DNA of 53,328 nucleotides, the filler included, from Stramenopiles sp. TOSAG23-2 (taxonomy: Eukaryota): the NCBI GenBank assembly GCA_900128395.1. It is 3 parts of 3 records of this genome, joined end to end, with 100 filler letters (N's around TTAATTAATTAA, not from the genome) between each part and the next. Parts side by side here need not be neighbours in the genome. Positions count along the whole stretch, not along the records: positions 17,812 to 35,520 come from LT649631.1; 2 more parts are not named here. One strand, written 5' to 3'. A program made the translations under genes and the position numbers. This document shows, in pieces, positions 10,901 to 40,716 of the stretch. Below the pieces are notes generated by a model that saw only the letters and a program-made list of their open reading frames with translations, searched no databases and had not been told where the DNA came from. Within the stretch, counting starts at the first letter, position 1. Each line of letters starts with the position of its first letter.

Positions 10901-13900
10901 TTTGCACTTGAAAAGTATCTTAGAAGGATCATTTGCGACTGGTGATGTTTCTACTGAAATTGTAGAAATGGATCTAGAAGAAGAAGACGACAAAAGATTA
11001 GTAAATAAATGTCAAAGTCTTGGTATTACTCCGTACTCTTCGTTTATTGCATCTTTAAAAAGTTTGGAAAATTCAATAAATACTTCCAACAAACCGTCTC
11101 TTATATATGGACGGGAAGGTACGGGTAAATCAATGATACCTAAAGTCATTTATTCAGATAAAAAAGATTCTGTTTTGCACGTTTATACTTCAGCAATAAC
11201 CTTTGAAAATTTAATTGGAAGTTTCTATGGAAGTCCATGTATTTGGCATGACGGTGTAATTTCAACATATCTAAGAAATCAAAGAGTACATGATGACAGC
11301 GTGATAATATTTGATACAATATCTTCAACAGAATTTTTAGACGTTGTTTTACATAACAATAATACTCAAAATGAAGATGAGACTTATTTTCTTCTCCCCA
11401 GCGGTGAAAAATTGAATGTAGCACCTAAAATCATTATCGAAAGTACTGAAATTGCAAACTTTACTCCACGAGACTTATCAAATGTATCCCTGCTGTATTG
11501 CAGCCCAATAGATAGTTTTTGGCAAGGACTCTGTTGTTCGTGGATAGACAAACACACACAGATATATCCAAAGATAAAGGAACTGCGTGATGTTACGGTT
11601 GCATTGTTTGAATGGCTGTTGCCAGCAATGGTAGCATCGTTTTCGTCGAATGGCTTTACTAATCAAGCAGTAAATGCGACACTTCAAATATATAGTACAA
11701 TGTTACATCAATTTCATGAAGGGTCAGATTCGGAAAACGATGAACCTGACAAAGCTAAAGAAAATAAGAAAAAATCGAGGAATCATGGGAAAAAGAAAAT
11801 GTCAAATAAAAATGAAGATGCATTAGAAGCATTGTTCGTATATTCTGTTATATGGGGTTTTGGTGGAAAGTTCCAAGACGTAAATGAACGATCCTTGTTT
11901 GAGGGAAATTTACGTGGTTTATTGAATGGATCAACCACCGGTGGCTATAGCGAGGCACAAAATTCGAAAAATAAGGCTGAACATTACTTCAATAAGAACT
12001 GTCTAGGAGTTGGAGGGCCTATTGAACGGAAATCTAAGTTGCCACTTCCACCACAGCAATCAATATTTGAGCTAATATATTCATTGGAAAAAAATAAATG
12101 GGTTAAAGCTTTCATTGAGCCAGCGGCTGAAACTGTTTCTAATGTTAGCCCATTCTTTTCAAATATTTACTCTCAACCATCATTACCTTTATTGCAGACA
12201 TTGATGTCTAGCAATAAAAACTTTTATATCTGCGGAAACGATAGAGATGATCGAATTGCCACGTTGCGTAATAGCATAACCAACAATAACAGTGACCAGA
12301 ATTTATTTATTTCTCCAACTCACGTAAGAAATGACCTGGTGTATTTCCGTACGTTTGTTGAGAAGCATATTAATCCATACGGAAATAAATTATGCAAACC
12401 AAAAGATGGAAAAATTTTGAAAATTGTTGTAGAGGATCTAAGTATGCATGATAATGCTGATGGTAAAAATGCCATTTTGGAAACAATGCGACAAATACAG
12501 GATGTACACCAGTGGTACAACCATGAACGTCAATCATTCATGGATATAGAATCTGTGTCTTTTGCTGGGACGTTTGCAACGCAAACTGCTCAATCTCAAT
12601 CGTTAGCACGTGTGTTGAATCGATCAATTATCATAAATGTAGCAGATTTGAGTCAGGGTATTCTTCAGAGCGTTTTATCCCAACATCTGATTGGAAGTTT
12701 AGACAAACGAATTGCTGGTTCCTTGTGCGAAGCTACCGTAGATTTGTATCAAAGTATTCGAGCCGCTACAATGCAAGATACAGTTGCATATCCTACTGTT
12801 TTTTCATTTAAAAATATAGTTTCAACGCTATTAAGTATATTTAATCATGTAGACACAAGTGTCTCTAGTATTATTTGGAATGGGTGGTCACATGCTTGTG
12901 CTCGAGTTTTTCGGGATTCTATATATGATGCAAACATGTATGATAGTTGTATGGCAAATATGGTTCAAAAATACAGTCTTCCATTGACTAAAAATCGTTT
13001 CTTCATCGACCGTTACAATTTCTTTACATCTTTAGGTAATGATGAAGGTATGATTAATGCTGTAGATGAAAATGAATTTTTGAGATTGATAGAGACGATT
13101 GAAATTAAACAGGAAGAGGATGGGGTAGTCCATTTTCCTATATTAAGTAAAAAGAAATCATGTCTAACAGATGCCGCGCATTTATTGCATGTAGTCTATG
13201 ATTCCAATGAAGATGTTGTATTTGCAGGAGAAGCATCATTGGAAAAAGAATACACTATATCATTGCTTGCAAATATTACTGCCAGGACACATGTCAAAGT
13301 TTCCACCGTAGATGAAATAATGCAAGTATTGCAACGTAATACTACAACAAAAGAAAAATTAATTATAGCTGTAAGCAATGCAAATGTTGGAAAAATGGAA
13401 AAGTCAATTATAAAATTCAATGATCCTACATGGTTTTTAAACGTTGCGCTCGAAATGTATGCTAACAATATTACTTTAGTCAAGGAAATCTTCAATAGCT
13501 GGAAAAGCCGTTGTCGGATTGTTTATTTAGTGGAACATGTTGCTTTTAAAAACCCTGCAATTCGAAGAAATACAAGAATTGTTTTCTCTACCAATTCTCA
13601 ACAAAATGATATTATAGATGTTTTTCCAAATACATATCATAGTCAAACTTTTGTTACTCATAGTCGTGCAAAATTTGATAATATTTTCTCATCTATTATG
13701 AAAAAAGTAAATGAAATTTCACCATACAATGCAGGTCCTCTACATTATTATGACTTTGTTCGAGAATATGAACGTATAATAAAATTTTATGAGATATATA
13801 CTGACATGAAATCAAACGAACTTACAATAATTTTAGAAAATATTCAATCTTTGAAAAATGAATCTAATGATATACAAGCTAAAAACGATAATTTGGAAAA

Positions 13901-16900
13901 CGAAATTTCGGTGTCAAAAGCATTTAGAGAAACAGCGGTGGACAAAGTAAAGGAACTTGCTTCAGAAAGAGCAGGTATGGTTGGAAAAATAAGTGAAATT
14001 AAAGATAGACTAAATGTACATCAGGAAAAGTCAGATGACTTAACCAAACAATTTCATACTATCATGGACCCAATAGTCATTCAGTTGGAACAAGTAAATA
14101 TTGAATTTAGCTCTACATCTCACAAAGATGAAATAACGAGTTTAAAAAAACTTGATAAACCATCACCACAAATTGTTGTGGTAGTCGAAGCCCTTTGCAT
14201 ACTTTTTGGTATTAGGCCACAAAAAAGTAAAAATGATACCGTTAGTGGGGTAGACTACTTTGAAGCAGCTAGAAAACACGTATTTAACAATTCTTCGAAT
14301 TTATTGCAGAGGATTTTGGAATTTGATCGAAAGAGCATAACAGATGATATTTTTGCAATTATGATGCAGTTTCAGGCAAAGAAAACGTTCGTTCCGAAGG
14401 CAGTTAAGCGACAATCAAAATTTTGCGCGTTGTTGTGCAAATGGATTCGGATTGTTGTTGACTTTTCAAAAGCTATGCGAACAGCAGCACCAATAGAAAC
14501 TGAACTAAGAGACGTAGCTCACAATCTTGAAATGGCATCACTTGATTTGCATGAATGTGATACTAAGTTAGCTGGGATAGATGAAAATCTTTCAAAATAT
14601 AACATGCAAAAAGAAGAATTTACAGCCAAGGAGGTTCAAGCACAGATTAAGGTTGCAATGTTACATGCCAATTTTGAAAAGACAGCACTCATATTACAAT
14701 CGTTGAAACAATTTGAAAAGAAATGGAATCAAGAATTAGTTGGAATAGAAGATATACAGCATTGTGTCGCTGGTGATGCAATATACATTGCAACCTTCAC
14801 TACGTACTGCAATATCCTTCCTGATAATGAACGAACGAAACTCTTGCTAAGCGTAAGAAACGTTTGCAAAGAATATCATATAAACATATCAGAAAGTATA
14901 GACATGTCGTTGCTAATCGATTCGAATAATATGGATCAAACAATTAAAAACTCAAAGATAGAACAATGCAGTCGCTGGTCTATAAAAGACTGCCTTTTGA
15001 TTCAAGAAGCACCACGTTGTATCATGTTAGTCGATCCGTTTGACTTTGCAAGCGACATGTTAAACTCGCTTTATCCAAGTAACGATCCTGTGGATGTAAT
15101 CTCAATTCATCATATTGATTGTAAGAAAGAAATACATGATGATACAAAGTTGTCGCCATTAATTATTCAAATAGAACATATTGATAATGATATTGAAACT
15201 ATTACAAAGCTGCTATTTAGCCCTGATCTGAAAAGTGAGGATAGTGATTATGAAGACTATCCACCAATTAGCAGAAAAATCTTTTTATCGACGGATCAAC
15301 CAACATTAATGCTGCCAGAACCGTTGTTTAATAAATTAAGTGTTGTAAACTTAGCCAATGATGATGTTATTAATAAATTCCTAGTAAATTCAATGATTTC
15401 CTTAGATCCTGCTGTGACAAAACATCAGTCCGTGATGTTAAAAGAACGAGAAAAGGCGACTCAACAAATTAGTCGCATTGATCTACAGTTACAAGAAATT
15501 TTACAAAGCCCTTCCTTAGAGAAAATTTATGAAAAGTCAGATGAAATAATCGTATGTGCAAATGAATGGCGAGAACTTGATGATGTTATCAATCGTGTAA
15601 AACGACAGCTTTCAGCATTGGAGGAGGATTTGAAATTATGGACTCCGATTGCTGATGCAATGAAAAATATTATGAACTTCATGCTAACTATATGCAAGTT
15701 TAGATCCATATACAAATATAGTTTCCACAGTCTTATACAGTTGTTTTTCCAAACCCTAAAACAGATTAAGAAGCAGAGACATACGAAGATATTAGCAGAG
15801 CGTATCAAAAAGGTGTTTATTGGGAACACTTATAGATATTTTTTCCCTTCTTTTATTGCTGAGGATATTCTACCTGCAACATTTTTATACTTTTGGGAGC
15901 TCAACAAGTCAAATGAACAATTGCAACTTTTTAAATCGATTTTTGAGGAATCAATGCATGATACAAGTGAAAAAATAGATGAAGGGGATGGTAGAAGCGA
16001 AGACTTGGAAATACTTAGCAGAATGACATGGTTACAAGAAGGATTCCCAAATCGAATTGCAAAATTAGAAACGTCCTCAAAATTAAAAGGCATAACCAAA
16101 GCTTTGATGGAGAAACCCGAGGAATTTTACAATTTGATGAATTCCGATTTCACTGAGCATGATTTTGACCGGGTTACGTTTTTTACTGCGAGATTCGGTA
16201 CAATTGAGGAAAATGTTACTGCGGCTACTGCGTTCGGCAATAGAGGACAATCATCCTCTAATTTTGATCTGGGGGATAGAATATTAGGTAAAATGACCAT
16301 TCTTTATTGTTTTCTGGGAATGGGTGGAAAAACGAAATCGTTTTTACATGATTGGATTATACATTATTCGAAAGGGTGTAAACTGTATGATCCAGCCGAA
16401 GATATGTTTGGAAATTCTATCATGTTGGGTAGCAATCGAAAACCGGTTATTATTGTTGGTGATACAAGAAGAAATTTAATAGTTAGTCTTAGATCGTTTG
16501 CGGAGAGCAAAAATGCTCTTCGTAACTTGAAAATACATTCTTATACTGATAACACTGCTGATCGTCTTAATGAAGTCATTGTAAATGGCATGGATCGTGG
16601 TGATTGGATTGTCATAACTAATATGGATTTTACTAATAAAGTATTCTGGAGATACCACAAGACATGCTGTTCAGTTGATACAAGCAGAATTGATAAAGCA
16701 TTTCGTTTAATTTTGATACATTCACCTGGTGTGTCTGTTCCTCGTGAAATTGTAGGGAAATGTGTTGTACATCGTTATAACAATAAATTAGCTTTACATG
16801 ACCATTTGGTTCATCTATATTCTATTGTTAGAAAGTCTTTGTACGAATATGAGATTCCAGCAGAAACTCTGGAAGAAAAGAATGAAGCTTTGAATAAAAA

Positions 16901-17411
16901 AATATTCTCAAAACGATCGCTTTTTTGTCTTGCATATTTCCACGCGAAACTTGAATGTGAGCTTATCTTTACTAATAGAGATAACAATGGAATCATCTCC
17001 GATGATATTTTTCTTTCATCACATGAACTGTTAGTTTTTATTTTGATTAATGGTAATGAACATGATGCGAATCCACTAATTCATCGTGCTATTATTGAAG
17101 GTATATATGAACATACTTTGTCTATGAATGGCGAAGATAATAAGGAAAATATTGCATTAATAAGTAAATTGTTTGATCAAATTTTTGTTCAATGTAATCG
17201 ATTGAAATCGAAGGTTATTGATCCAGATGATCCATCGTCTTCTTTTGTATCAACTAATAGACTTTCCGATGTAATCACTGAGTTAAGGAGGTCTCGTCAA
17301 ACATTTGACGAGCCTGAAGATGGTTTTAGAGACTTTTTGTCCAATCATGAAGAACATATGACGGAAAATATTGTAGTGAAAATTTTGTGTAAAATTATTA
17401 AATTGATGTAA
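4965..17411 (+). CDS. Divergent axonemal dynein heavy chain (DNAH1-like N-terminus) with degenerate AAA1/AAA3/AAA4 motifs; C-terminal cap absent
   Basis: 4148-aa single-exon ORF. Tail (LPLWTFD, WEKCKILSYD), linker (LKDRHWLEIS, YLNSKRAICNRLYLLNDADL, PEWLNVVQHEM), AAA1 region (YEWLKHPRY, YGNEFL, MITPL), WHDGV, LPSGEKL, stalk/MTBD (KPSPQIVVVVEALCILFG, LCKWI), GDWIVITN, LFCLAYFHA. Confidence 0.9.
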   Translation: MDGSKNIEAFLRYASKSLKRPTEPSRKKSKDNHNNTDSNGSIINQRPPRKSANITASYQTYKSKSSAIRPPSRITKQWNAPVTLRIPTNSKGIQSLEKLSSNQKKQYKFKKPHPPNSRKVKGKKYMKHRGKADSDIKGVASRGNKFAANTEVASQQLKSLSPSERIGTNYSISTLCLTLKLIGDLKVVQENKDDYTQQIEKRWKALKESYIKENKMFLKIDTSKLPLWTFDTTPQTLNDDNDNNNDNNNNKSNSSNNSDNTIKYAYAKYYNGQAFHWEKCKILSYDPVTNMYTIEFIESRKTKKLRSMFISFADYESISETEKRILTAKEEREHTKIVLRFLHFVEMQKDSINMEPPPNLEVEILSKLALMPMEDSQEIAKLILEFRENYYNSQKKAAAIYHLMSPLNDPLRHYLKLPGPAELRADNVFGCDAKSFIRPSYIRGQGCVSKQNINNLQSAAIFMRKGTVNAVMKTSYTWYPHFESVCLFETEAFAKKLEIEEPQTKSSKTSSTAFITPPPKKKKNRRLRTATIAAIAAIHLAEQPEGGDEVTKKQHKSSLNHIFRRKPLFILRNKIQNSRISLEDFHQLQTYHIEAVMKQMHKVWRNEIIDSLQKLHSSKFKFDVYTTKLELLDPRFIQLMKRIDLQMSYQLCKLIIRSFDEFITFVKDRSLTKEEESRLMNDYERKSIENIIDVTASDDGNENDSDNIIYFPLLLNVLEKEKKRSYSIYSNASNSESDDEQITASNGIGRSLNRIVTNSKCLYGPAVRSLINIEMEIDMNSVQTNFITFSPTLEEIENRFITTIESGFNQCNIIEAPVKYILQFISFTDDKSLFGEFDSLLHQKHEETKRQISQLLRIQFDQISIIVKLYQEFASILNIDDEKLIDYIFDECPDGYKEKRVVDSRVKKSEDEAEDLFDGYRGESGPTSVQSEIRRFSAIRDEILLKSHNEEYIGIFAVNFQTIKQTIAAKASNIAKRLTDQVLVNAQKKYLQLLTEYNMISDKLNAPIENEKDVFATRTFLAETPDLVLELTERHYNISERIRLLGEFFVNESYECFEMSWTLYQWPMKIEKLKDECSFRIMSISRKLQQIITSEEKAVDERVHNIKMEVVKFRKFGDYEKVDYFAGEAAAVHGHLENIHDKAVELNEREINLDSSPTEFMDLERIMRDFSPYFKLWTTYSDAISDVSNWKTSSFWLLKTSEILEKVALWKEDSSTLLSHFHKERIRDPRNVAEKYQEHVLIFSQYLDLIKVLKHHALKDRHWLEISNILGFEIKPSTEISLNTIIEKESHTKIDILKDILVKAEKELSCEMQFEKVSDDWHHCNAKTGLVKSFQLNIIISFDETFASTDDLIIRVEEILKSPFSTSVKADADALLKDMSMLQAIFRTCRSFQDTAILLCGLFNQENIRSVMAAEARKFTSMLSSWKRAGNDIKRQPSLSTICEMPNIYEKFKSWLDIVKNIDHKKEVYLNSKRAICNRLYLLNDADLMEMMSIENHVLHVEKFVRNAFPGIITLNKSEVVIDVEEVNDEDEKKGGNVVEEKRTPSWLVDGLNGFGEDNLKLQNAVEASVEKFPEWLNVVQHEMQSAMRNEILNLESSMEKRILYSSLQVALIHDKILWNRLVEDKIMNQNLGSIWQYVNDDIMFLIESLKDKNSALNARHREIQSILHWKLTARDLASELDRCKVSSTKEYEWLKHPRYTTHKEVDANSGELVTTLSVQVIEGDIKYGNEFLNAESSMMITPLGDKYIRVMTSSYICCYGNTLHGDEGTYETSIFHSVANSIGLPSFLYKCQKGSNAVSLSRFIRGITSSGVWGGFVDYDKLHVQYAASLVLEMRQAMQVKRAKKSLFKDFKIDHGFHLCILNSITSSISKKKVNRDFSSFRALHISMPNYNMMIKLYLTTFGFIHSTLNVNIEKFFHLYYDSAIIEPSVRFENWFLYSQIFSVITINSKNATTCNINNLISQMLYNLIQRTCSEKDCLHLKSILEGSFATGDVSTEIVEMDLEEEDDKRLVNKCQSLGITPYSSFIASLKSLENSINTSNKPSLIYGREGTGKSMIPKVIYSDKKDSVLHVYTSAITFENLIGSFYGSPCIWHDGVISTYLRNQRVHDDSVIIFDTISSTEFLDVVLHNNNTQNEDETYFLLPSGEKLNVAPKIIIESTEIANFTPRDLSNVSLLYCSPIDSFWQGLCCSWIDKHTQIYPKIKELRDVTVALFEWLLPAMVASFSSNGFTNQAVNATLQIYSTMLHQFHEGSDSENDEPDKAKENKKKSRNHGKKKMSNKNEDALEALFVYSVIWGFGGKFQDVNERSLFEGNLRGLLNGSTTGGYSEAQNSKNKAEHYFNKNCLGVGGPIERKSKLPLPPQQSIFELIYSLEKNKWVKAFIEPAAETVSNVSPFFSNIYSQPSLPLLQTLMSSNKNFYICGNDRDDRIATLRNSITNNNSDQNLFISPTHVRNDLVYFRTFVEKHINPYGNKLCKPKDGKILKIVVEDLSMHDNADGKNAILETMRQIQDVHQWYNHERQSFMDIESVSFAGTFATQTAQSQSLARVLNRSIIINVADLSQGILQSVLSQHLIGSLDKRIAGSLCEATVDLYQSIRAATMQDTVAYPTVFSFKNIVSTLLSIFNHVDTSVSSIIWNGWSHACARVFRDSIYDANMYDSCMANMVQKYSLPLTKNRFFIDRYNFFTSLGNDEGMINAVDENEFLRLIETIEIKQEEDGVVHFPILSKKKSCLTDAAHLLHVVYDSNEDVVFAGEASLEKEYTISLLANITARTHVKVSTVDEIMQVLQRNTTTKEKLIIAVSNANVGKMEKSIIKFNDPTWFLNVALEMYANNITLVKEIFNSWKSRCRIVYLVEHVAFKNPAIRRNTRIVFSTNSQQNDIIDVFPNTYHSQTFVTHSRAKFDNIFSSIMKKVNEISPYNAGPLHYYDFVREYERIIKFYEIYTDMKSNELTIILENIQSLKNESNDIQAKNDNLENEISVSKAFRETAVDKVKELASERAGMVGKISEIKDRLNVHQEKSDDLTKQFHTIMDPIVIQLEQVNIEFSSTSHKDEITSLKKLDKPSPQIVVVVEALCILFGIRPQKSKNDTVSGVDYFEAARKHVFNNSSNLLQRILEFDRKSITDDIFAIMMQFQAKKTFVPKAVKRQSKFCALLCKWIRIVVDFSKAMRTAAPIETELRDVAHNLEMASLDLHECDTKLAGIDENLSKYNMQKEEFTAKEVQAQIKVAMLHANFEKTALILQSLKQFEKKWNQELVGIEDIQHCVAGDAIYIATFTTYCNILPDNERTKLLLSVRNVCKEYHINISESIDMSLLIDSNNMDQTIKNSKIEQCSRWSIKDCLLIQEAPRCIMLVDPFDFASDMLNSLYPSNDPVDVISIHHIDCKKEIHDDTKLSPLIIQIEHIDNDIETITKLLFSPDLKSEDSDYEDYPPISRKIFLSTDQPTLMLPEPLFNKLSVVNLANDDVINKFLVNSMISLDPAVTKHQSVMLKEREKATQQISRIDLQLQEILQSPSLEKIYEKSDEIIVCANEWRELDDVINRVKRQLSALEEDLKLWTPIADAMKNIMNFMLTICKFRSIYKYSFHSLIQLFFQTLKQIKKQRHTKILAERIKKVFIGNTYRYFFPSFIAEDILPATFLYFWELNKSNEQLQLFKSIFEESMHDTSEKIDEGDGRSEDLEILSRMTWLQEGFPNRIAKLETSSKLKGITKALMEKPEEFYNLMNSDFTEHDFDRVTFFTARFGTIEENVTAATAFGNRGQSSSNFDLGDRILGKMTILYCFLGMGGKTKSFLHDWIIHYSKGCKLYDPAEDMFGNSIMLGSNRKPVIIVGDTRRNLIVSLRSFAESKNALRNLKIHSYTDNTADRLNEVIVNGMDRGDWIVITNMDFTNKVFWRYHKTCCSVDTSRIDKAFRLILIHSPGVSVPREIVGKCVVHRYNNKLALHDHLVHLYSIVRKSLYEYEIPAETLEEKNEALNKKIFSKRSLFCLAYFHAKLECELIFTNRDNNGIISDDIFLSSHELLVFILINGNEHDANPLIHRAIIEGIYEHTLSMNGEDNKENIALISKLFDQIFVQCNRLKSKVIDPDDPSSSFVSTNRLSDVITELRRSRQTFDEPEDGFRDFLSNHEEHMTENIVVKILCKIIKLM

Positions 17412-31664: not shown

Positions 31665-34600
31665 TTAAATCTCAGACCACTTCTCTTCACAATTTTGGCA
31701 TTCTTTGCTAATGAGCCACTTAGGAGTATCCCACACCCCATATTTTTTTTTTGCAAGATCACACGCAACGCACTGGTCACCAAACTTCCATTCCGTACTT
31801 GAAATATCTGAATCTTTCAGCTCGCATGCCTCCCCACATGTGACACCTTTAAATTTCCGTGCTTGTGGCCCATAAATGTAACAGCTCGAATAAAATACAG
31901 GATCAGAAGGATCAGTAGTTGTTCTCCAAATTTCACCAACATTTTGTCTTGCTTGTCTTGGTGGCAAATATGTTTGGACACCATAGCATACCAATGCAAC
32001 CTTGCCTTGCTTCGCATACCTTTTTGCCCATGGCTTGAATTGTGATTCAACACACACTCCTGAATTGATAGGTGTCTTAGAAGCCTTCTCCATATCTACC
32101 ACGCTGGACCCTAAGCTGTCAAGCCATGGTATATTTACTACCGACTTTCGACACGCCAACCAAGCTGCTTGTGCGCGAGTTTCCGCAGCTTTCAAGCATT
32201 TACCTCTTCCATGATTTGGTTCGAATGCCATACATGTCGCAAGTTCTTCCGGGGTCAACTCCTTTGGTATGTTGTCACATATTGAAAAGTTATGAAACAT
32301 AGTAGCAGTCGTGGGTGGGTTAATTACCGGCACCACATTGACACCACTGCAAGACCAGTCCCTTGTCTTATGGAGTGACCCTTTAGATGTACATGCATTG
32401 AGACAAACTTTTACACCCGCAGGTTTATCAGCAGACCAGCATTTAGTTCTTGCCGGCCGATTTCTAGCAGCTTGTATATTTGGAGGATTTCCCATGTAGC
32501 TTTCAAATTGACAGTGGTCAATTCTTCGCCACCTTTTTAAACCTTCCTTACCCCATTTGTCTGTTGCTACTTCACCTGGGGCCAACACATTGACATCAAC
32601 ACAGTCACGGTACCCACGCCATACATAGTGCAAAATATGACGTCCTGCTCCTTTGTTTGCTGGTATCTTTAGTCGAACAGTGTCCCACTCATCGGGAAAG
32701 GATTGACCATGTTTAAATCGATAAACACCTTCAAGCCATGGATATTTGTCACTTTGGTAAGATGTGAAAACATCTTTAGCGCGAAGTGCTTTTGTGTATT
32801 TAAATTGTTTCAAGGCACCAGTGCAATATTTTCTAAAAAATGCACCTGGTCTTCGAATGTATTCAGGATCTTCTGCTGTGAGCTCTTTTTGCCACCCACC
32901 ATATTGCCCTAATTTCCCGCATCCAACATGAGTGCGCTCTGGTGCTGGCACCGTTGCACCTTCTGGTGCTGCTGCAATGTATCTTTCAAACATGTTTTGT
33001 CCATGGAATAACAATTTTTTTTCATCCTCATGACGTATTATTGCAAAGTATGTGTACGTGCTCGAATGGCCTGACATGAATTCAACTTCAAACTCTTGAT
33101 TGGGACCAACCTGCATATGAGCTGGCCTTGACAATTCTGCTGGTGGGCACGGGGTAGTTGTACTTGTCTTGCTTGCACGGGAGGATGGATTGTGTAACCA
33201 ATTGTGGGCATTGCAGCAACGTGGGCCTTGGGCAAGCACGGAGATGAAAACGAAGCAAATCGTTAGTGGTGTTGTGTGAAGTTTATTTCTGGGGCCTCTT
33301 TTCTTTCCACGGGATGGGGGAGGAGCAAGTGCCACCGAAGGTCGAGCTTCTTTCTGATTTTTCTGTTGCCCTTGATACATGTATGCAACGCTACCACCAG
33401 CCAATTTCCAGTCCAACTGAATGACATGCGATCCATAATCTCTCTTTTCAATGACAGTGCCTGCGCCAAATATTGTGTCCACACGTTTGTTGATGCTGTT
33501 GGTCGGTAATCCCGTTGCCATTTCAGCCATTTCCAACACAATAGGATTCTGTCGAAACTCATCCACCGTAATCGCTACTGCTACATTACTGTTGTCACCA
33601 TTGCTACTGCTTCCAACGATTTTTTTTTTCTTAAAATTCAAGTACAGAGCAGCCGCGTCCTTTTTTTTCCTCCAATGCCTGTACACAACAGCCGCAAGTA
33701 CACCAGCCACAATCACTAAACACACGATCACTCCAACCACTAAGCCTATATCCGACTTGCTGGCTTCCTCGACATCGTTGGAAAAATCATCACTGCCTTT
33801 TTTTTCTTCAGCTACTATTATGTTTTGCTTCGGGGGACCTCCTTGCTCGGTACCGTTACTAATATCACTCGATTCGTCTTCGATTGGGACGTCAACGACA
33901 ATTGCATCGATTTCTTCCGCGCTGATGTTGACACTTGTAAATCCATTAAACAATGGTGATGGGCATTCTTTCGTATAGTCGACGTTGGTATTGTTGCAGG
34001 CACATAACCGCCCATCTTCATTACTTTTCGTGGAGCATTCAGATAAAATTGGACATTGCCCTGTTGGTTTTTTCCAGTAGCACCAACCATCGTCAGGATC
34101 AACCGTAAAAGTTGAGGTTGCCATGCATTGCCCACCACTTGTACTGGGCTTTTGTAGGAATGGTAATCGGCAAGTATAGAATTTATTGGCAGGTGCATAT
34201 TGCACCTCGGGTGATGTGCCTTTGGTGGCTAAGTCCAACATGGCATTTTCATCACACTCGCTACCAATGCTCATTCTTGCACATGCTGCATTACAAGTCT
34301 CACCTTTGTGCGAAACGAACCATCTTTGTTTAGAGTCATCCTTATTATATCCATCTTCGGACAAAACAAGGTCTTCGGTGAGATTGACCCGGGCAGCATT
34401 GCCATTGTAACTAAATGTTCCAGGCCAGTAAAAGGCTCCACCTTGGGTAATTCCGTGCTTGACTAACACCCTCAGTGTGAGGGAACCGGATCCAATAACA
34501 GGAGCTTGCCACCTAATTTTTTCATGATAGTTTTTCATGTTGGCATCTGAGTGAATTATAGCTGCACCATCCTGGCACGTGTGAAATGCAGAGGCACCGC

Positions 34601-35063
34601 CGGAGACCCCGGACGGCACTGGAAAGAAACCAACCTTTTTTCCGTCGTCATTTTCCGCGTACATCAAGAGGCCCAAATACTTCATCCCAGGTTTGTCAAC
34701 AAAAACGGTGATTTCAATAATTTCACACGGCTTAAATGTGAGAGTTGGTTTTCTATTTGTAGTACCACCAACACCTTGAAGGTGGATGCGATAAGCATTG
34801 TTGCGTGTTGGTGGCGCCACTAAATCCATTCCTGGGGGACAGCAAGGTCCAAATCTCCCGTTATCTTTCAGTTTAGCCCAAGGAACCATCCATGCCTTTA
34901 CAGATTCTGGGCATTCATAATTACATAAAGTAGCAGTGGCGTCGTTGCAAGCAGCACCTTGGCCATTGGACCTGGCTTGGACAGAGACAGGAACGAGAAA
35001 TAGGAACACCAGGACAAGTGCAACAACTCTATGACACGCTTCCATAATTTCCATTACAATCAT
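31665..35063 (-). CDS. Polyprotein-like membrane protein: signal peptide, Reeler domain, Cys-rich module, TM, cytosolic tail, internal signal peptide, His-brace LPMO-fold domain, Cys-rich C-terminus
   Basis: Start ATG at 35063, 35054 or 35045. Reeler motifs (YLGLLMYA, KVGFF, IIHSDA, IRWQAP..GSG); TM IGLVVGVIVCLVIVAGVLAAVVY; CNA-HNWLHNPSSR; MSGH; GRHILHYVWRGYRDCVDV. Confidence 0.8.
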   Translation of the reverse strand: MIVMEIMEACHRVVALVLVFLFLVPVSVQARSNGQGAACNDATATLCNYECPESVKAWMVPWAKLKDNGRFGPCCPPGMDLVAPPTRNNAYRIHLQGVGGTTNRKPTLTFKPCEIIEITVFVDKPGMKYLGLLMYAENDDGKKVGFFPVPSGVSGGASAFHTCQDGAAIIHSDANMKNYHEKIRWQAPVIGSGSLTLRVLVKHGITQGGAFYWPGTFSYNGNAARVNLTEDLVLSEDGYNKDDSKQRWFVSHKGETCNAACARMSIGSECDENAMLDLATKGTSPEVQYAPANKFYTCRLPFLQKPSTSGGQCMATSTFTVDPDDGWCYWKKPTGQCPILSECSTKSNEDGRLCACNNTNVDYTKECPSPLFNGFTSVNISAEEIDAIVVDVPIEDESSDISNGTEQGGPPKQNIIVAEEKKGSDDFSNDVEEASKSDIGLVVGVIVCLVIVAGVLAAVVYRHWRKKKDAAALYLNFKKKKIVGSSSNGDNSNVAVAITVDEFRQNPIVLEMAEMATGLPTNSINKRVDTIFGAGTVIEKRDYGSHVIQLDWKLAGGSVAYMYQGQQKNQKEARPSVALAPPPSRGKKRGPRNKLHTTPLTICFVFISVLAQGPRCCNAHNWLHNPSSRASKTSTTTPCPPAELSRPAHMQVGPNQEFEVEFMSGHSSTYTYFAIIRHEDEKKLLFHGQNMFERYIAAAPEGATVPAPERTHVGCGKLGQYGGWQKELTAEDPEYIRRPGAFFRKYCTGALKQFKYTKALRAKDVFTSYQSDKYPWLEGVYRFKHGQSFPDEWDTVRLKIPANKGAGRHILHYVWRGYRDCVDVNVLAPGEVATDKWGKEGLKRWRRIDHCQFESYMGNPPNIQAARNRPARTKCWSADKPAGVKVCLNACTSKGSLHKTRDWSCSGVNVVPVINPPTTATMFHNFSICDNIPKELTPEELATCMAFEPNHGRGKCLKAAETRAQAAWLACRKSVVNIPWLDSLGSSVVDMEKASKTPINSGVCVESQFKPWAKRYAKQGKVALVCYGVQTYLPPRQARQNVGEIWRTTTDPSDPVFYSSCYIYGPQARKFKGVTCGEACELKDSDISSTEWKFGDQCVACDLAKKKYGVWDTPKWLISKECQNCEEKWSEI

Positions 35064-35520
35064 AGCAGAATCTAAATATACGCTTCGCTCAGAAATCAAC
35101 GTCAAAAAGTATTAAAGTTCAACTACATTAATTAAAAAAATAATATAATAGTAATAATAATAATCCAAAAAAAAAAAAGATATTATTATTGAGTTTCTTC
35201 TTGTTCTACTTTTTTTTAAAGAAATGGAATTTTGTTTTTTAATCATACGTAATACAACACCAGCAAGGTTGTACGGAATTCCATATACGTCATTTAAAAT
35301 TCAAAAGATATAATACAATTAAAAGTGAAATAAGGGCAACAAGGGTTAGCCACATTTTGGTCACAACATTTTTGCATTTTTGCAGACGACTGCAGTTTTT
35401 TCTCTGGACACCAGAGATTTTCCTTGCCAGTACCAAAAAATGTACACTTAATACAATAACAAAATAACACTATTCACTATGGGAAATATGTAAATATCGT
35501 TTTCTAAAATACCAATTTTA

Positions 35521-35620
35521 NNNNNNNNNNNNNNNNNNNNNNNNNNNNNNNNNNNNNNNNNNNNTTAATTAATTAANNNNNNNNNNNNNNNNNNNNNNNN
35601 NNNNNNNNNNNNNNNNNNNN
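35521..35620. other. Artificial 100-nt contig spacer
   Basis: N44 + TTAATTAATTAA + N44, same as 17712-17811. Confidence 0.98.
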
Positions 35621-35675
35621 AATTAATGTTCAGCAAGGAATACTTGCATTTCTTCTAATGATTTCTTAGCATCAC
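35621..35675 (-). repeat. Inverted 55-bp copy of the NNT 3' end (38582-38636)
   Basis: Exact reverse complement by eye; joins the NNT coding frame at CATCAC. Confidence 0.9.
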
Positions 35676-38634
35676 GCCAACCAATGTGGCACAATTGACC
35701 AAAGCAGGTGCAACCGTTTCAGTTGAAAAAGGTGCTGGTATTAATAGTGGTTTCAGTGATGCTTTATTTGAAGAGCAAGGTGCAAAAATTGTATCTGGTG
35801 ATGAAGTATGGAAACAAGATGTTGTTTTAAAGATGAGAACACCAACTCCAGAAATGATTGCCAAATTGGAAAACCGCACGTTAATCAATCAACTTGGTGC
35901 TCGTTTCAACCCAGAGTTGGTTGATCAATTGGCAGCACAAGGTGCAACATGTTTTGATCTTAGTATGCTTTTGCGTACGTTAAGTCGTGGGCAAACGTTT
36001 GATGTTATTAGTTCCCAAGCCAATATGGCTGGTTACAGAGCTGTTGTTGAAGCTGGTAATATTTTGCAACGTCCATTTGCTGGTCAAATGACGGCAGCTG
36101 GAAAAATCCCGCCAACTCGTGTGATGGTAGTTGGTGCTGGTGTTGCTGGTCTAGCAGCAATCCAAACTGCGAAAAATTTAGGTGCTATTGTAACTTCCTT
36201 CGATGTTCGTGCTGCTGCAGCAGAACAAGTTGAAAGTATGGGTGCACAATTTTTAAAAGTAGAATTCGAGGAGGATGGTGCTGGTGCAGGTGGTTATGCA
36301 AAAGAAATGTCCCCAGAATGGTTTGAAGCTGCAGATAAAATGTTGTTAAAAGAAATGGAAAAAACAAATGTAATTATTACAACTGCTTTGATTCCAGGTC
36401 GTGCAGCACCTTTACTTATCAAAAAACATCATACAGATGCAATGCCACATGGTAGTGTAGTTGTTGATCTTGCAGCTGAAACTGGCGGTAATTGCGCTAT
36501 CACAGAAGCTGACAAAGTTATTGACGTGGATGGTGTAACTGCAATTGGTTACACAAACATGCCAAGTCGTTTGTCTACTACATCTAGTACCCTCTTTGGT
36601 AATAATGTCACCAAATACTTACTTAGTATGAGCAAAGATGATCAATATGTTGTAGATCTTGAAGGCGATGAAGCTGTACGTAGTATGTGTATTGTACACA
36701 ATGGTAAGAAATTGGAAGAATATGTACCACCACCACCAGAAGTCGATCCACAAGCAGAGGCAAAAGCAGCTGCAGCTGCAGAAGAGGAAGTCGAAGCAGA
36801 TCCAAAAACTGAGACGATGACAAGTGCAAGAAATTATGCAATTGGGGGTTCAGTCGCAACTGCACTTGGTGCTGGTGTACCAAACGCGCCAATGCTTTCG
36901 ACATTTGCCCTTTCTGTCTGGGTAGGTAGTGGCGCAGTACAAGGCGTTACACATGCTCTTCACTCTCCATTAATGAGTGTAACAAATGCAATTAGTGGTA
37001 CAACCATTATCGGTGGTATGCTTCAGCTTAGTGGCGGAATTGTACCTTACAGCGCTGCTGGATTTTTAGCAACGACTGCAGTTACATTATCAGCAGTCAA
37101 TCTTGCTGGTGGTTTCATGGTAACGGAGAAAATGCTTGATCTTTTCCGTCGTCCAGATGATCCACCTGAGTACTGGCATTATTATTACATGCCATTCGGT
37201 GTAATTGGAGGGGGATATGCATTGGCAAAACTTACTGGTACTGCATCTGCTAGTTTAACACCAACCGTTGCATTGATCTCCGGTTTAGGTTGTATTGGTG
37301 GTATTGCTGCATTGAGCAGTCAAGAAACTGCACGTGCAGGTGTCACGATTGGTAGTGGTGCAGTAGGACTTGGTGTCCTTGCAGCACTTGGTACTATGGA
37401 TTGCTCTGGTGCTGTATATGGACAATTAGCCCTTTTCTCTGCGTTGGGTTTAGGAGTTGGTCATCAAGTTGCAGCTAGAATTGAACCTACATCTTTACCA
37501 CAAGCTGTAGCAGGATTCCATTGTCTTGTTGGTATTGCAGCCACGTCTACTGCAGTGGGTGATTTCTTAACTCACGATATGTCGCATATGGATGGTTTCC
37601 ACAGTGCTGCTATTTATTTAGGTGCATGGATGGGTTCCATTACATTTACTGGTTCTGTCGTTGCAGCTGGTAAACTTGCTGAATATTTCGATACCTCCCC
37701 AATGCAATTGAGTGGACGTGATTACATCAATATGGGTCTAGGTAGTACTACAGCTCTTTCAATGCTTGCATTCATGGGTTCATCCAGTCCTAGCGTTGCA
37801 GGCGCTGCGCTTGGCTATGGTGTGCTTAGTAGTGGTTTGTTAGGTTGGCACATGACTGCCAGTATCGGTGGTGCTGATATGCCAGTTGTTGTTACTTTAT
37901 TGAATTCTTATTCCGGTTGGGCATTGTGCGCTGAAGGTTTCATCTTGGATCAACCTGTATTAACGATTGTTGGTGCATTAATTGGTTCATCAGGTGCTTT
38001 CCTTACCAAAATTATGTGTGACGGTATGAATCGGGATTTGACCGGTGTTATTGCTGGTGGTTTCGGTACAGAAGCTGGCGCAGTACAAACTGCTGAAGGT
38101 TTAGTTCATACGGAAGTTAATTCCGAAGGTGCTACACAAGCAATGCTTGATGCTCAAAAGATTATGATCACACCAGGATATGGTCTTGCTGTTGCACAAG
38201 CTCAGCAAGTTGTTGCACAAATTGCAGACAAATTAAAAAGTTTGGGCAAAGAAGTCACTTTTGGTGTACATCCAGTTGCTGGACGTATGCCTGGTCAATT
38301 GAATGTTCTTCTTGCAGAAGCTGGTGTTCCATATGATATTGTATACGAGATGGAAGAAGTTAATGAAGAGATGCCTGATACCCAAGTCGCTTTGGTTGTA
38401 GGTGCAAACGACACCGTAAATTGTCTTGCTGAAGATGATCCAAATTGCGCGATTGGTGGAATGCCAGTTATCCAAGTATGGAATGCTGAACAAGTTCTTT
38501 TCATGAAACGTAGTATGGCATCTGGTTATGCTGGTGTTGATAATCCAGTATTTTACAAAGACAATACTGATATGTGGTTGGGTGATGCTAAGAAATCATT
38601 AGAAGAAATGCAAGTATTCCTTGCTGAACATTAA
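35671..38634 (+). CDS. NNT: Mitochondrial-type NAD(P) transhydrogenase, fused alpha-beta, 5'-truncated
   Basis: ITPTNVAQL, ANMAGYRAV, GAGVAGL, GGYAKEMS, HALHSPLMSVTNAISG, GGADMPVV, HPVAGRMPGQLNVLLAEA, GYAGVDNP. Confidence 0.97.
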   Translation: MTPTNVAQLTKAGATVSVEKGAGINSGFSDALFEEQGAKIVSGDEVWKQDVVLKMRTPTPEMIAKLENRTLINQLGARFNPELVDQLAAQGATCFDLSMLLRTLSRGQTFDVISSQANMAGYRAVVEAGNILQRPFAGQMTAAGKIPPTRVMVVGAGVAGLAAIQTAKNLGAIVTSFDVRAAAAEQVESMGAQFLKVEFEEDGAGAGGYAKEMSPEWFEAADKMLLKEMEKTNVIITTALIPGRAAPLLIKKHHTDAMPHGSVVVDLAAETGGNCAITEADKVIDVDGVTAIGYTNMPSRLSTTSSTLFGNNVTKYLLSMSKDDQYVVDLEGDEAVRSMCIVHNGKKLEEYVPPPPEVDPQAEAKAAAAAEEEVEADPKTETMTSARNYAIGGSVATALGAGVPNAPMLSTFALSVWVGSGAVQGVTHALHSPLMSVTNAISGTTIIGGMLQLSGGIVPYSAAGFLATTAVTLSAVNLAGGFMVTEKMLDLFRRPDDPPEYWHYYYMPFGVIGGGYALAKLTGTASASLTPTVALISGLGCIGGIAALSSQETARAGVTIGSGAVGLGVLAALGTMDCSGAVYGQLALFSALGLGVGHQVAARIEPTSLPQAVAGFHCLVGIAATSTAVGDFLTHDMSHMDGFHSAAIYLGAWMGSITFTGSVVAAGKLAEYFDTSPMQLSGRDYINMGLGSTTALSMLAFMGSSSPSVAGAALGYGVLSSGLLGWHMTASIGGADMPVVVTLLNSYSGWALCAEGFILDQPVLTIVGALIGSSGAFLTKIMCDGMNRDLTGVIAGGFGTEAGAVQTAEGLVHTEVNSEGATQAMLDAQKIMITPGYGLAVAQAQQVVAQIADKLKSLGKEVTFGVHPVAGRMPGQLNVLLAEAGVPYDIVYEMEEVNEEMPDTQVALVVGANDTVNCLAEDDPNCAIGGMPVIQVWNAEQVLFMKRSMASGYAGVDNPVFYKDNTDMWLGDAKKSLEEMQVFLAEH

Positions 38635-39162: not shown

Positions 39163-40716
39163 TTATTTAATTTTATTCATGTTGTCTTTTCTTTCTTCAA
39201 ATAACGAAGTCCAATCTCTTGGTTGAATACCCAGACGTGAAAGAGCAACACAAAATTCTTCAAAATTAATCACGCCACTTTTATCAGCATCAAACTCTTC
39301 GAATAAGTTACGCACAGCTTCTTGATCCAGTTTTTTCCACCCTACCATTTTTGCTGGATTGAAGCTATCAACTCGAGATAATCCAGATGGTATTCCAGCC
39401 ATACGTTTACCAACAATATCTACAAATCCTTCCGTTGTTAATCCTGTAGGACCACATAAATCTCTAGTACCTTCATCGTTTACCATACATTGATGAATTG
39501 TATCGCGCAACTTCGAGGTAAACTGAGTAATTTTCTCCGCTTCTGTTTTGTCATCGCTTAATGCAGCACTGTGGTTCATAGCCCCTATCAACGCCTCAAC
39601 AAGGCCTAATGGATTTAAACTAGTCTCTCTACCTTCTTTATGATCTTCCCACATATCTGCTACCGTACCATGCGAGGCTTCAAACTCTTGAATCATCACC
39701 CCGTCTTCTCTTTTGCCAATTAAATTTGATGTAATGAATCCTGGACTACGATGGACTTGCGCAACTTCGTCTGTTAACATATCACCATCATAATTATGTG
39801 CAGCCATACCAAATCCACCATCAGTCCATCTGATAATTTGCATAGTTGCCGCATCGGATATTAAATGCTGTAAATCGTTTCCACAAACATCTAATAAACC
39901 TTTTTTATTAAAATCATCTTTATAATGTGCATCAAATACATCTTTCATCCTCGTCCAAAATCCTTCTTGCCATTTAAACACAGTTTTTTTAGTTACAACA
40001 TATGGAGTCACGTCAGCTTCCAAACATCTCTTAAAGAAATGATGAGCGAGATCAGTTACATTGTCTAATGGATTATGATACGTCACAACAGCATTGCAAT
40101 CGTCTACCAGCTCCCTTTCATCCACTACAAGTTCATCACCACCATCTTTTGGTGTAAATACAGTTTTTAACGTACCGGCAGGCACTTCTTTCCAGCCTGC
40201 TTGATATTCACCACCAATAGCATGTCGTTCAAATAAAACAGGCTTTTTAAAACCAAGTTCCATATTTTTAATGTGTATGGTATCTCTTGATATAGTAATA
40301 CCGTTCCAACCACGACGCATGGCACCATTTGGGCTTCCTAACACATTTTTTATACCCCATTCTTTTCGCTGATCTGCACTTGGAGTGACAGTTGGCTCTT
40401 TAAATATAGCACCTAATTTTTTACCGGCAGCTACAGCATCATACAATTCTTGATCATTTGTTTCATCTCTTACTTTACAACTCAAATCATAAAAATCCCA
40501 TTTTGATGTATCGATGTTCGGTTCTATCCACTTATCTAGAATAAGTTGCATGCAATATCGGGTCATCTCTTCCCCTTTGATGTACACCATAGGTGGTGCT
40601 ACAATTTTTTCTTTTGTAGCGAAAGTCCGTTTATTAATTGGTTGAAAATACGAAGCAGTATTATTACGAAATATTGATAATTTCATCATTTGCTTTTTAC
40701 TATGGTGAAGGAACAT
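39163..40716 (-). CDS. IDH: Type II homodimeric isocitrate dehydrogenase, predicted NAD+-specific, with presequence and C-terminal EF-hand
   Basis: GEEMT, KEPTVTP, SPNGAMR, NYDGDMLTD, EASHGTVADM, TSLNP, TRDL; EF-hand DADKSGVINFEEF. Confidence 0.92.
   Translation of the reverse strand: MFLHHSKKQMMKLSIFRNNTASYFQPINKRTFATKEKIVAPPMVYIKGEEMTRYCMQLILDKWIEPNIDTSKWDFYDLSCKVRDETNDQELYDAVAAGKKLGAIFKEPTVTPSADQRKEWGIKNVLGSPNGAMRRGWNGITISRDTIHIKNMELGFKKPVLFERHAIGGEYQAGWKEVPAGTLKTVFTPKDGGDELVVDERELVDDCNAVVTYHNPLDNVTDLAHHFFKRCLEADVTPYVVTKKTVFKWQEGFWTRMKDVFDAHYKDDFNKKGLLDVCGNDLQHLISDAATMQIIRWTDGGFGMAAHNYDGDMLTDEVAQVHRSPGFITSNLIGKREDGVMIQEFEASHGTVADMWEDHKEGRETSLNPLGLVEALIGAMNHSAALSDDKTEAEKITQFTSKLRDTIHQCMVNDEGTRDLCGPTGLTTEGFVDIVGKRMAGIPSGLSRVDSFNPAKMVGWKKLDQEAVRNLFEEFDADKSGVINFEEFCVALSRLGIQPRDWTSLFEERKDNMNKIK

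Follow-up and report, generated by a model that had tools for sequence, protein, structure and literature searches.

Host signal peptidase cuts the glycoprotein polyproteins of flaviviruses, alphaviruses, bunyaviruses and hepaciviruses, and small residues at positions -3 and -1 mark the sites of this enzyme. Reeler domains are known, among other settings, from the Reeler-DOMON-cytochrome b561 ferric reductases. According to PMC10952591, the known sequences of lytic polysaccharide monooxygenases (LPMOs) and of the related histidine-brace classes all carry N-terminal signal peptides, the removal of which unmasks the copper-binding amine; the same review describes, for the class X325, an Asp carboxylate at the fourth equatorial copper position and a link to copper transport. 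PMC5823890 gives His1, His91 and Tyr184 as the site of TdAA15A and reports AA15 from unicellular algae too, and PMC12113285 and PMC10149183 place arthropod Reeler proteins in antibacterial immunity. Here we analyzed a stretch of 53,328 nucleotides from Stramenopiles sp. TOSAG23-2 (assembly GCA_900128395.1), made up of joined parts of three records and referred to in full as the window. A gene on its minus strand, located in record LT649631.1, encodes a protein with a Reeler domain in its N-terminal half and, hundreds of residues downstream, a domain of 216 residues that starts at His620. In this marine flagellate, the product of the gene is probably a polyprotein of the secretory pathway, which signal peptidase would cut directly before His620, thereby unmasking a histidine-brace LPMO-like domain of a new family.

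The putative cleavage site was judged by the (-3,-1) rule and by comparison among relatives, with all counts coming from 161 relatives and the window protein, in which the tripeptide C-N-A directly precedes His620. The domain was matched by 156 of the 161 relatives, and in 132 of them the alignment starts at query residue 1-3, where His is found in 131 and Asp in one; N-W follows in all except 4 of the 132. Together with the window's own, 133 proteins were sorted by the position of the site: 90 have it at position 100 or beyond and 26 behind a start Met at positions 12-45, whereas 6 are N-terminal fragments and another 11 are either intermediate or without a start Met. All 90 internal sites have His at +1, with A (75), G (10) or S (5) at -1 and A (35), V (22), C (13), T (11), S (7) or G (2) at -3, which bears out the expectation of a first-pass annotation of this locus that homologs would retain the His as well as the internal signal peptide. 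The 26 N-terminal sites likewise have His at +1 throughout, preceded by A (12), G (6), S (6), P (1) or T (1) at -1 and by A (10), V (9), C (3), S (2), G (1) or T (1) at -3, so that these forms are predicted to begin, once mature, with this same His.

The hydrophobic core ahead of the site has 12 residues in the window, a median of 12 at internal sites (interquartile range 11-14) and a median of 11 at N-terminal ones; a core of about 12 residues has the length of a signal peptide and falls short of a transmembrane helix. Net charge in the 12 residues ahead of the core is at least +1 in 66 of the 90 internal cases. The core residues themselves vary among relatives and, judging from the alignments, the stretch before the His appears to be kept as a cleavage site and not as a sequence. 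Most internal cases have a hairpin made up of a first hydrophobic segment, a basic turn of 3-10 residues and the signal core (e.g., ...LLALVDKRFAVVAIALVYLIGSSEA followed by HNW). In the window's lineage, the short turn is replaced by a loop of 138 residues, which jackhmmer found in only 7 of the 161 relatives.

The same counts bear on an alternative in which the protein is a two-pass membrane protein that is never cut: the second hydrophobic stretch would be a second transmembrane helix, the sandwich would stay tethered with His620 internal and no brace, and the domain would serve as a binding or adhesion module. We consider this unlikely. Twelve residues, in the window as in the family median, are short for a helix that spans the bilayer, and an uncleaved anchor would have no reason to keep A/G/S at -1, A/V/C/T/S/G at -3 and His at +1 in 90 of 90 cases. 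Moreover, the same His stands right behind an ordinary signal peptide in all 26 N-terminal-type relatives, and homology begins exactly at it. What the two-pass protein has on its side is that cleavage between residues 619 and 620 is itself a prediction, that sandwiches of adhesin, pilin and p53 type are likewise similar to the fold, with comparable Z, and that a complex prediction of the two ectodomains (residues 31-375 and 620-835) gave no verdict on their association; its score of 0.24, under the mark of 0.34, came from a predictor that left the alignment unused, and says nothing either way on binding.

The arrangement of the whole protein (Table 1) is as an out / in / out topology predicts, since the loop between the two hydrophobic segments is free of Cys and of N-glycosylation sequons and lies between Cys-bearing stretches, with 18 Cys in residues 31-430 and 25 in residues 601-1132. 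Both hydrophobic segments have positive charges on the loop side. The protein ends in ...NCEEKWSEI, and no hydrophobic window was found beyond residue 617. A script check, and Pfam in the case of the Reeler domain, recovered at the same coordinates all the features named in the first-pass annotation, that is, the open reading frame, the motifs, the transmembrane helix, both His and the Tyr; its approximately 140 cytosolic residues correspond to the 138 residues of the loop.

On this topology we base the following proposed pathway. The first signal peptide would take the Reeler domain and the Cys-rich ectodomain into the lumen of the endoplasmic reticulum (ER), and the first transmembrane helix (TM1, residues 439-461) would halt transfer, with residues 462-599 remaining cytosolic. 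The basic cluster and the 12-residue core (residues 600-611) would then re-engage the translocon as an internal signal sequence, and signal peptidase would cut after C-N-A619. The upstream product would be a membrane-anchored Reeler protein that keeps both helices and ends in a two-helix hairpin, and the downstream product a soluble protein of 513 residues, with His620 as residue 1 and without any later hydrophobic segment. Following the logic that PMC10952591 gives for all known brace proteins, the alpha-amine of His620 would be free for copper only after the cut; together with His666 it would form a copper histidine brace, with Tyr818 beneath, on the LPMO-like sandwich. Such a scheme resembles the viral polyproteins in that the terminal hydrophobic segment of the upstream protein would be the signal of the downstream one, the small-x-small cut would take place in the ER lumen and the two products would, as proposed here, arise in equal amounts. 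It differs in that the gene is cellular, at least 90 family members have the layout, and the proposed purpose is to expose a catalytic N-terminal His. A receptor role of the Reeler half, and with it the coupling of prey or glycan recognition to oxidative attack that the first-pass annotation suggested, would be speculative.

Table 1. Coordinates of the gene, its predicted parts and other open reading frames (ORFs) in the window
Feature	Position	Strand	Residues	Remarks
Whole reading frame	31665..35063	-	1-1132	ATG at 35063, stop at 31665-31667; 1132 codons plus stop
N-terminal signal peptide (predicted)	34974..35063	-	1-30	hydrophobic ~9-30, ending V-Q-A before R
Reeler domain PF02014	34461..34739	-	109-201	E 6.8e-6, 27.1 bits, cut-off 21
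Cys-rich module after Reeler	33939..34343	-	~241-375	family profile matches GnT-V/MGAT5 C-terminal domain
Transmembrane helix 1 (predicted stop-transfer)	33681..33749	-	439-461	YRHWRKKK right after
Cytosolic loop (predicted)	33267..33680	-	462-599	138 residues, 0 Cys, 0 N-glycosylation sequons
Basic cluster RGKKRGPRNK	33282-33311	-	585-594	end of loop; charge +6
Internal signal peptide (predicted)	33207..33266	-	600-619	h-region LTICFVFISVLA (600-611, 12 residues), then c-region QGPRCCNA; C at -3, A at -1
LPMO-like beta-sandwich domain, putative new family	32559..33206	-	620-835	
His620 (candidate copper site)	33204-33206	-	620	74 of 74
His666 (candidate copper site)	33066-33068	-	666	74 of 74; mature position 47
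Tyr818 (candidate axial residue)	32610-32612	-	818	73 of 74, 1 Phe
C-terminal Cys-rich domain	31668..32558	-	836-1132	297 residues; weak PAN/apple-like match only; no hydrophobic tail
Polycystin-type channel	2129-4210	-		
Dynein heavy chain	4965-17408	+		intronless, 4148 residues
Transhydrogenase-like (proton-translocating) ORF	35686-38634	+		bacterial relatives ~45-52% identical
Isocitrate dehydrogenase fused to EF-hands	39166-40716	-		

An AlphaFold model computed from a 40-sequence alignment (predicted local distance difference test 90.4, predicted template modelling score 0.90) shows the domain as a beta-sandwich that carries an insertion of two helices (residues 59-78). When it was compared by VIA-align with 48,161 representative chains, 17 of the best 50 rows were LPMOs or LPMO-like proteins, in keeping with the LPMO-like sandwich that had been proposed from the sequence. 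These rows comprised AA9, AA10, AA11, AA13, AA15, AA16, X325 and fusolin, and one of them, 3uam, titled 'chitin binding domain', we take to be an AA10 member. The best structural neighbours were X325, AA15, AA10, AA9, AA11, AA13 and AA16, with Z of 7.8 to 5. Identity was 8-20% in the LPMO rows (14-20% in 16 of the 17) and 4-13% in the other rows, and the LPMO alignments begin at the mature N-terminus of the LPMO. Among the 50 rows obtained by re-examining Foldseek's 1000 best chains with VIA-align, 11 were LPMOs (Z: PcGH61D 6.4, BtLPMO10A 6.2, CBP21 6.1 at 21% identity). All of the link to LPMOs by structure comes from VIA-align. A language-model search of the Atlas returned clusters bearing PF03067 (LPMO_10) at ranks 2 and 3, with scores of 0.90 and 0.89, 23% and 13% of members with PF03067, and 191 and 186 of 256 features shared. 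The family was also compared by hhalign with an AA10 alignment of 24 sequences, namely the bacterial L006, from the only PF03067 genome among 301 of one bacterial phylum, and 23 relatives. This gave a local match over 52 C-terminal columns (P 0.002) that pairs ...IP..G.G.YI.HY.W, a three-column gap and.GY.DC.DV in the family with ...IP.DR.GYHVILAVWDVADT.NAFYNVIDV in AA10. Trp815 thereby falls on the Trp of AA10, and Tyr818 on the Phe of its NAF-Y..IDV motif, which is presumably the axial residue.

Conservation was counted in 74 full-length domains. His620, His666 and Tyr818, singled out by the first-pass annotation as the key residues, belong to the best-conserved positions of the family (Table 1), next to Tyr695 (74), Asp764, Trp815 and Gly817 (72 each), Tyr769 (71), Gln651 and Asp823 (69 each), His712 and Asp820 (68 each), Asp794 (64) and His649 (62). 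In the model, His666 lies in a loop right after strand 39-44, and Tyr818 opens the last strand. From the Tyr to the end of the aligned range there are 11 residues both in the model (199 of 210) and in TdAA15A (184 of 195), a likeness that is suggestive only. Cys639 and Cys821 are both present in 58 of the domains, both missing from 14 and split in only 2, and both split cases are intron read-throughs at that spot. This co-occurrence (Fisher p 2.6e-13, uncorrected for relatedness) fits a disulfide that would tie the N-terminal segment to the Tyr818 strand, and is the one indirect support for a common metal site of the two His and the Tyr.

A number of results weigh against assigning the domain to a histidine-brace, LPMO-like fold. 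Pfam on the whole protein at E <= 1 returned only Reeler and one chance row, with no LPMO_10, and LPMO_10 was found in 0 of 40 relatives at E <= 0.01. Profile searches of the PDB yielded no LPMO, the family profile (A2) matching only GnT-V, over the Cys-rich module. Foldseek against the PDB had no match at E <= 1e-3, and its 50 listed rows did not include an LPMO; the VIA-align Z values are all below 8 and thus middling by the tool's own scale, and about half of the rows in the re-examination of 1000 chains were p53 entries. The probability that hhalign attached to the AA10 match was low (13.9%). The position two before Tyr818, where the lack of the usual Gln/Glu had been pointed out for the window protein, is variable family-wide (R21, G14, N13, S12, A6, K3, E2 of 74), with no conserved Gln/Glu. 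Finally, the clustering of His620, His666 and Tyr818 around one metal site in three dimensions is a prediction, as are copper binding and any activity of the domain. Further searches added little: phmmer against the PDB with residues 585-1132 gave a chance DARPin row only, the domain-only profile A3 against the PDB gave two chance rows, HopA1 (E 0.8) and Certhrax (E 8.6), and a word-indexed search with A3 gave 5 matches, all known already and none with a Pfam domain.

Taken at face value, the want of any Pfam or PDB sequence match and the hhalign probability of 14% would also suit a protein that is cleaved and does begin with His, yet whose beta-sandwich is not that of an LPMO and has converged on H-x-aromatic..P.SR and W..Y.DC.DV. 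Such convergence seems improbable to us, given that LPMO families account for 17 of the first 50 rows in the comparison with 48,161 chains, with the highest identities and with alignments that run from the mature N-terminus, that a separate language-model search leads to PF03067-bearing clusters, and that the invariant residues fall exactly on the three positions of brace and axial site. With an LPMO-like domain as the preferred assignment, the missing LPMO_10 match and the low profile-profile probability bear out the option of a new family, which the first-pass annotation had already raised.

X325 proteins are GPI-anchored, whereas the window protein is without a C-terminal hydrophobic tail for such an anchor. 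The structural alignment with the fungal LaX325 (6ibh) has 14% identity; the window domain is about 65 residues longer, with the helical insertion at 59-78 and long loops, it has a Cys-rich domain of 297 residues behind it, and its signal peptide is internal and not N-terminal. As to the Asp carboxylate of the X325 copper site, the family has conserved Asp residues in D764, D820, D823 and D794. With AA10 and AA15 (CBP21, 2ben; TdAA15A, 5msz) it has the N-terminal H-x-aromatic-x-x-x-P-x-S-R in common, which reads HNWLHNPSSR here and HGYVMSPASR in L006; the C-terminal strand pair W..(Y/F)..(C/V).DV aligns with that of AA10, and TdAA15A has a Tyr as its axial residue, as would be the case here with Tyr818. 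On the other hand, both classes differ from the window domain in the LPMO_10 match, in a second His at about mature position 90-115 (47 here), in the Ala two before the second His (T48, V8, S5 and A4 of 74 at position 45 here), in the Asn/Glu/Gln two before the axial residue, of which none is conserved here, and in the place of the signal peptide. Whether the domain would be an oxidative enzyme of LPMO type or a copper-handling protein of X325/Bim1 type appears evenly balanced. On the one hand, X325 as the best neighbour and the absence of a conserved Gln/Glu at -2 lean to copper handling. On the other hand, the N- and C-terminal motifs of AA10/AA15 type and the Tyr lean to an oxidative enzyme.

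The polyprotein is encoded by a single uninterrupted reading frame. GC content per 150 bases is 0.40-0.53 all along 31675-35049, and highest at the junction of the two halves, compared with 0.08-0.34 in the flanks; this profile and an open frame of 3.4 kb in a genome of 30% GC indicate that the frame is not due to chance. RNA from marine samples (metatranscriptomic or transcriptomic, polyA) that matches this gene was found in 9 studies, and RNA contigs were mapped for four runs (X1, X4, X5 and X7), one per study. In run X1, a polyA metatranscriptome, one contig of 3320 nucleotides spans 31743-35062 without gaps and across the junction, and in run X4, from a second study, a contig of 2630 nucleotides spans 31677-34308, also across the junction; contigs over the two halves, in line with the one transcript that had been supposed, are seen in two studies. 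The gene is tiled by shorter contigs in runs X5 and X7. The X4 contig misses 2 nucleotides at 33918, which would shift the frame in the stalk before TM1; this is absent from the other three runs. No spliced joints were found in the contigs of the four runs, and the gene is thus intronless in those contigs. Contig ends lie at 35058-35065 in all four runs, i.e. around the first ATG, and in X5 the adapter follows right after 35065, which places the 5' end of the mRNA at or very near this ATG. Translation may start at Met4 or Met7 instead, since the 5' untranslated region would otherwise be a few bases; the signal peptide is unaffected. No paralogs of the gene were found in the window by tblastn.

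These data also bear on the possibility that the two halves are made separately, from an internal promoter or translation start such as Met566, the long frame being a fused gene pair. There is neither a stop nor a drop in GC between the halves, the junction is crossed by single RNA contigs in two studies, and the contigs of the four runs have no common start within 33210-33700. It must be held against the single polyprotein that assembled contigs do not show transcript starts and that an extra internal start remains compatible with them. The nearest in-frame Met upstream of the His in the window is Met566, at a distance of 54 residues. Among the 90 internal cases, a Met between -40 and -11 is present in 59, as separate production would have it, and absent from 31, which argues that separate translation is not a general route to the C-terminal half. 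Most relatives have only 3-10 residues between the hydrophobic segment and the core, so that neither a promoter nor a leader would fit in. Separate halves would agree with the 26 stand-alone relatives in which an N-terminal signal directly precedes the His, but overall we regard them as very unlikely.

An exhaustive HMMER search with residues 620-835 retrieved 416 cluster representatives at E <= 1e-3 and 237 at E <= 1e-10, and a word-indexed search with residues 585-1132 retrieved 17 relatives. The names on 10 family clusters that were checked were 'hypothetical protein' or none. Architectures were counted by local jackhmmer with five parts of the window protein over the 161 relatives: besides the rare loop, the Reeler-like module was matched in 72, the following Cys-rich module in 74, the LPMO-like domain in 156 and the C-terminal domain in 119. 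A Reeler and/or Cys-rich module is located upstream of the LPMO-like domain in 79, the most frequent string being Reeler, Cys-rich, LPMO-like and C-terminal (44), and in 71 the LPMO-like domain is present and these upstream modules are absent. Reeler with LPMO-like is the commonest architecture in the family. Judged by these counts, the window gene appears typical of the main architecture, with an unusually long loop. In the course of evolution the two halves have evidently undergone fusion or separation, in agreement with their being two separable proteins.

Two relatives of 952-953 residues (P0002 and P0003) have the Reeler domain and the same order of parts, with 51-52% identity over 96% of the query. 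Six others (P0004, P0005, P0006, P0013, P0014 and P0015) have the cytosolic motif (FGAGTV...WKLAG), the basic cluster, the internal signal and the HNW domain as in the window, with 62-72% identity over the covered part; their N-terminal ectodomain is different and without a Pfam match, and some have long Ala-rich repeats. A longer form of the loop motif, VDTIFGAGTV..DWKLAGG, is common to the window protein and 7 relatives, and from the alignments the unit of loop, signal and domain seems to move as one module. P0007 exemplifies the stand-alone form, with MRLLLPTLLFLASPLGPPIFAAG and then directly HNWINNP. The closest relative, P0018 (705 residues), is 81% identical over a short part (9% of the 585-1132 query); it has Reeler, transmembrane helix, loop and signal in the same order, and its frame is lost shortly after HNWLHNPPSRA, by a sequencing error or in a broken copy. 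The N-terminally truncated P0041 has, at residues 13-39, the end of a plastocyanin/azurin-type domain (PF00127, 23.9 bits, cut-off 21.2), upstream of an internal site of AxA followed by HNW (position 258). This cupredoxin remnant, one case only, hints at electron transfer or copper handling.

The upstream half is conserved as well, with a Reeler module that extends family-wide over about residues 31-240 and scores 40.9 bits in P0002. The family profile of the Cys-rich module behind it matches the C-terminal domain of human GnT-V in the PDB (E 9.5e-6; 9f5h_A, 6yjq and 5zic, ~1e-5), and the window's own Cys-rich stretch, searched singly against the PDB, gave no GnT-V match. A Reeler domain above the PF02014 cut-off and in an extracellular position is what the N-terminus of reelin and the arthropod immune Reeler proteins have too; here, it is joined to the GnT-V-C-terminal-like module and, via the membrane hairpin, to the LPMO-like domain.

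Other ORFs of the window (Table 1) code for an intronless dynein heavy chain, a polycystin-type channel, an isocitrate dehydrogenase fused to EF-hands, MSS51, a short-chain dehydrogenase, an adenosine-deaminase-domain protein and a transhydrogenase-like protein. The host is a cellular eukaryote, a flagellate with a compact, intron-poor genome of 30% GC. A viral origin of the gene was rejected in view of its neighbours (dynein heavy chain, polycystin and isocitrate dehydrogenase) and by a search of IMG/VR, in which no relative of the domain was found. Positions from about 35521 to 35620 are a run of N with a short TTAATTAATTAA island. Adjacent to it, 35624-35700 on the minus strand encodes ...DAKKSLEEMQVFLAEH and a stop, and the same 16 residues form the C-terminal end of the transhydrogenase ORF on the plus strand. 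The arrangement reflects either a partial duplication in inverted orientation or a join made in assembly.

In a literature search that left most subscription journals outside, no paper was found that combined LPMO with internal signal peptide, with Reeler or with haptophyte, and nothing relevant was found for LPMO with diatom (among the papers listed) or for new LPMO families of marine protists. What is new here is an LPMO-like domain that probably forms a histidine brace, belongs to a new sequence family and would mature via an internal signal peptide in a cellular polyprotein. Since all known LPMOs have N-terminal signals, LPMO searches and annotation look at the start of a protein, and in the commonest layout of this family the putative brace His lies hundreds of residues from the start of the ORF. 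If the cut occurs, the tenet that an LPMO is an N-terminal domain has a whole family of exceptions that surveys have overlooked, and marine protists have a family of copper proteins that is invisible to Pfam and CAZy-type profiles. Cellular genomes would then link two ectodomain proteins in the way that viral polyproteins do. A broader idea, which in our view might hold about as easily as fail, is that of a widespread class of cellular polyproteins in marine protists, not met with in the literature searched, in which signal peptidase acting at an internal signal would create the brace His. An anchored Reeler/GnT-V-like protein and a soluble copper protein of the new LPMO-like family would thereby reach the cell surface at 1:1 and be paired in the oxidation of a surface or prey glycan or in copper capture. 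The constant partnership with Reeler domains offers a new handle on the biochemical role of these domains.

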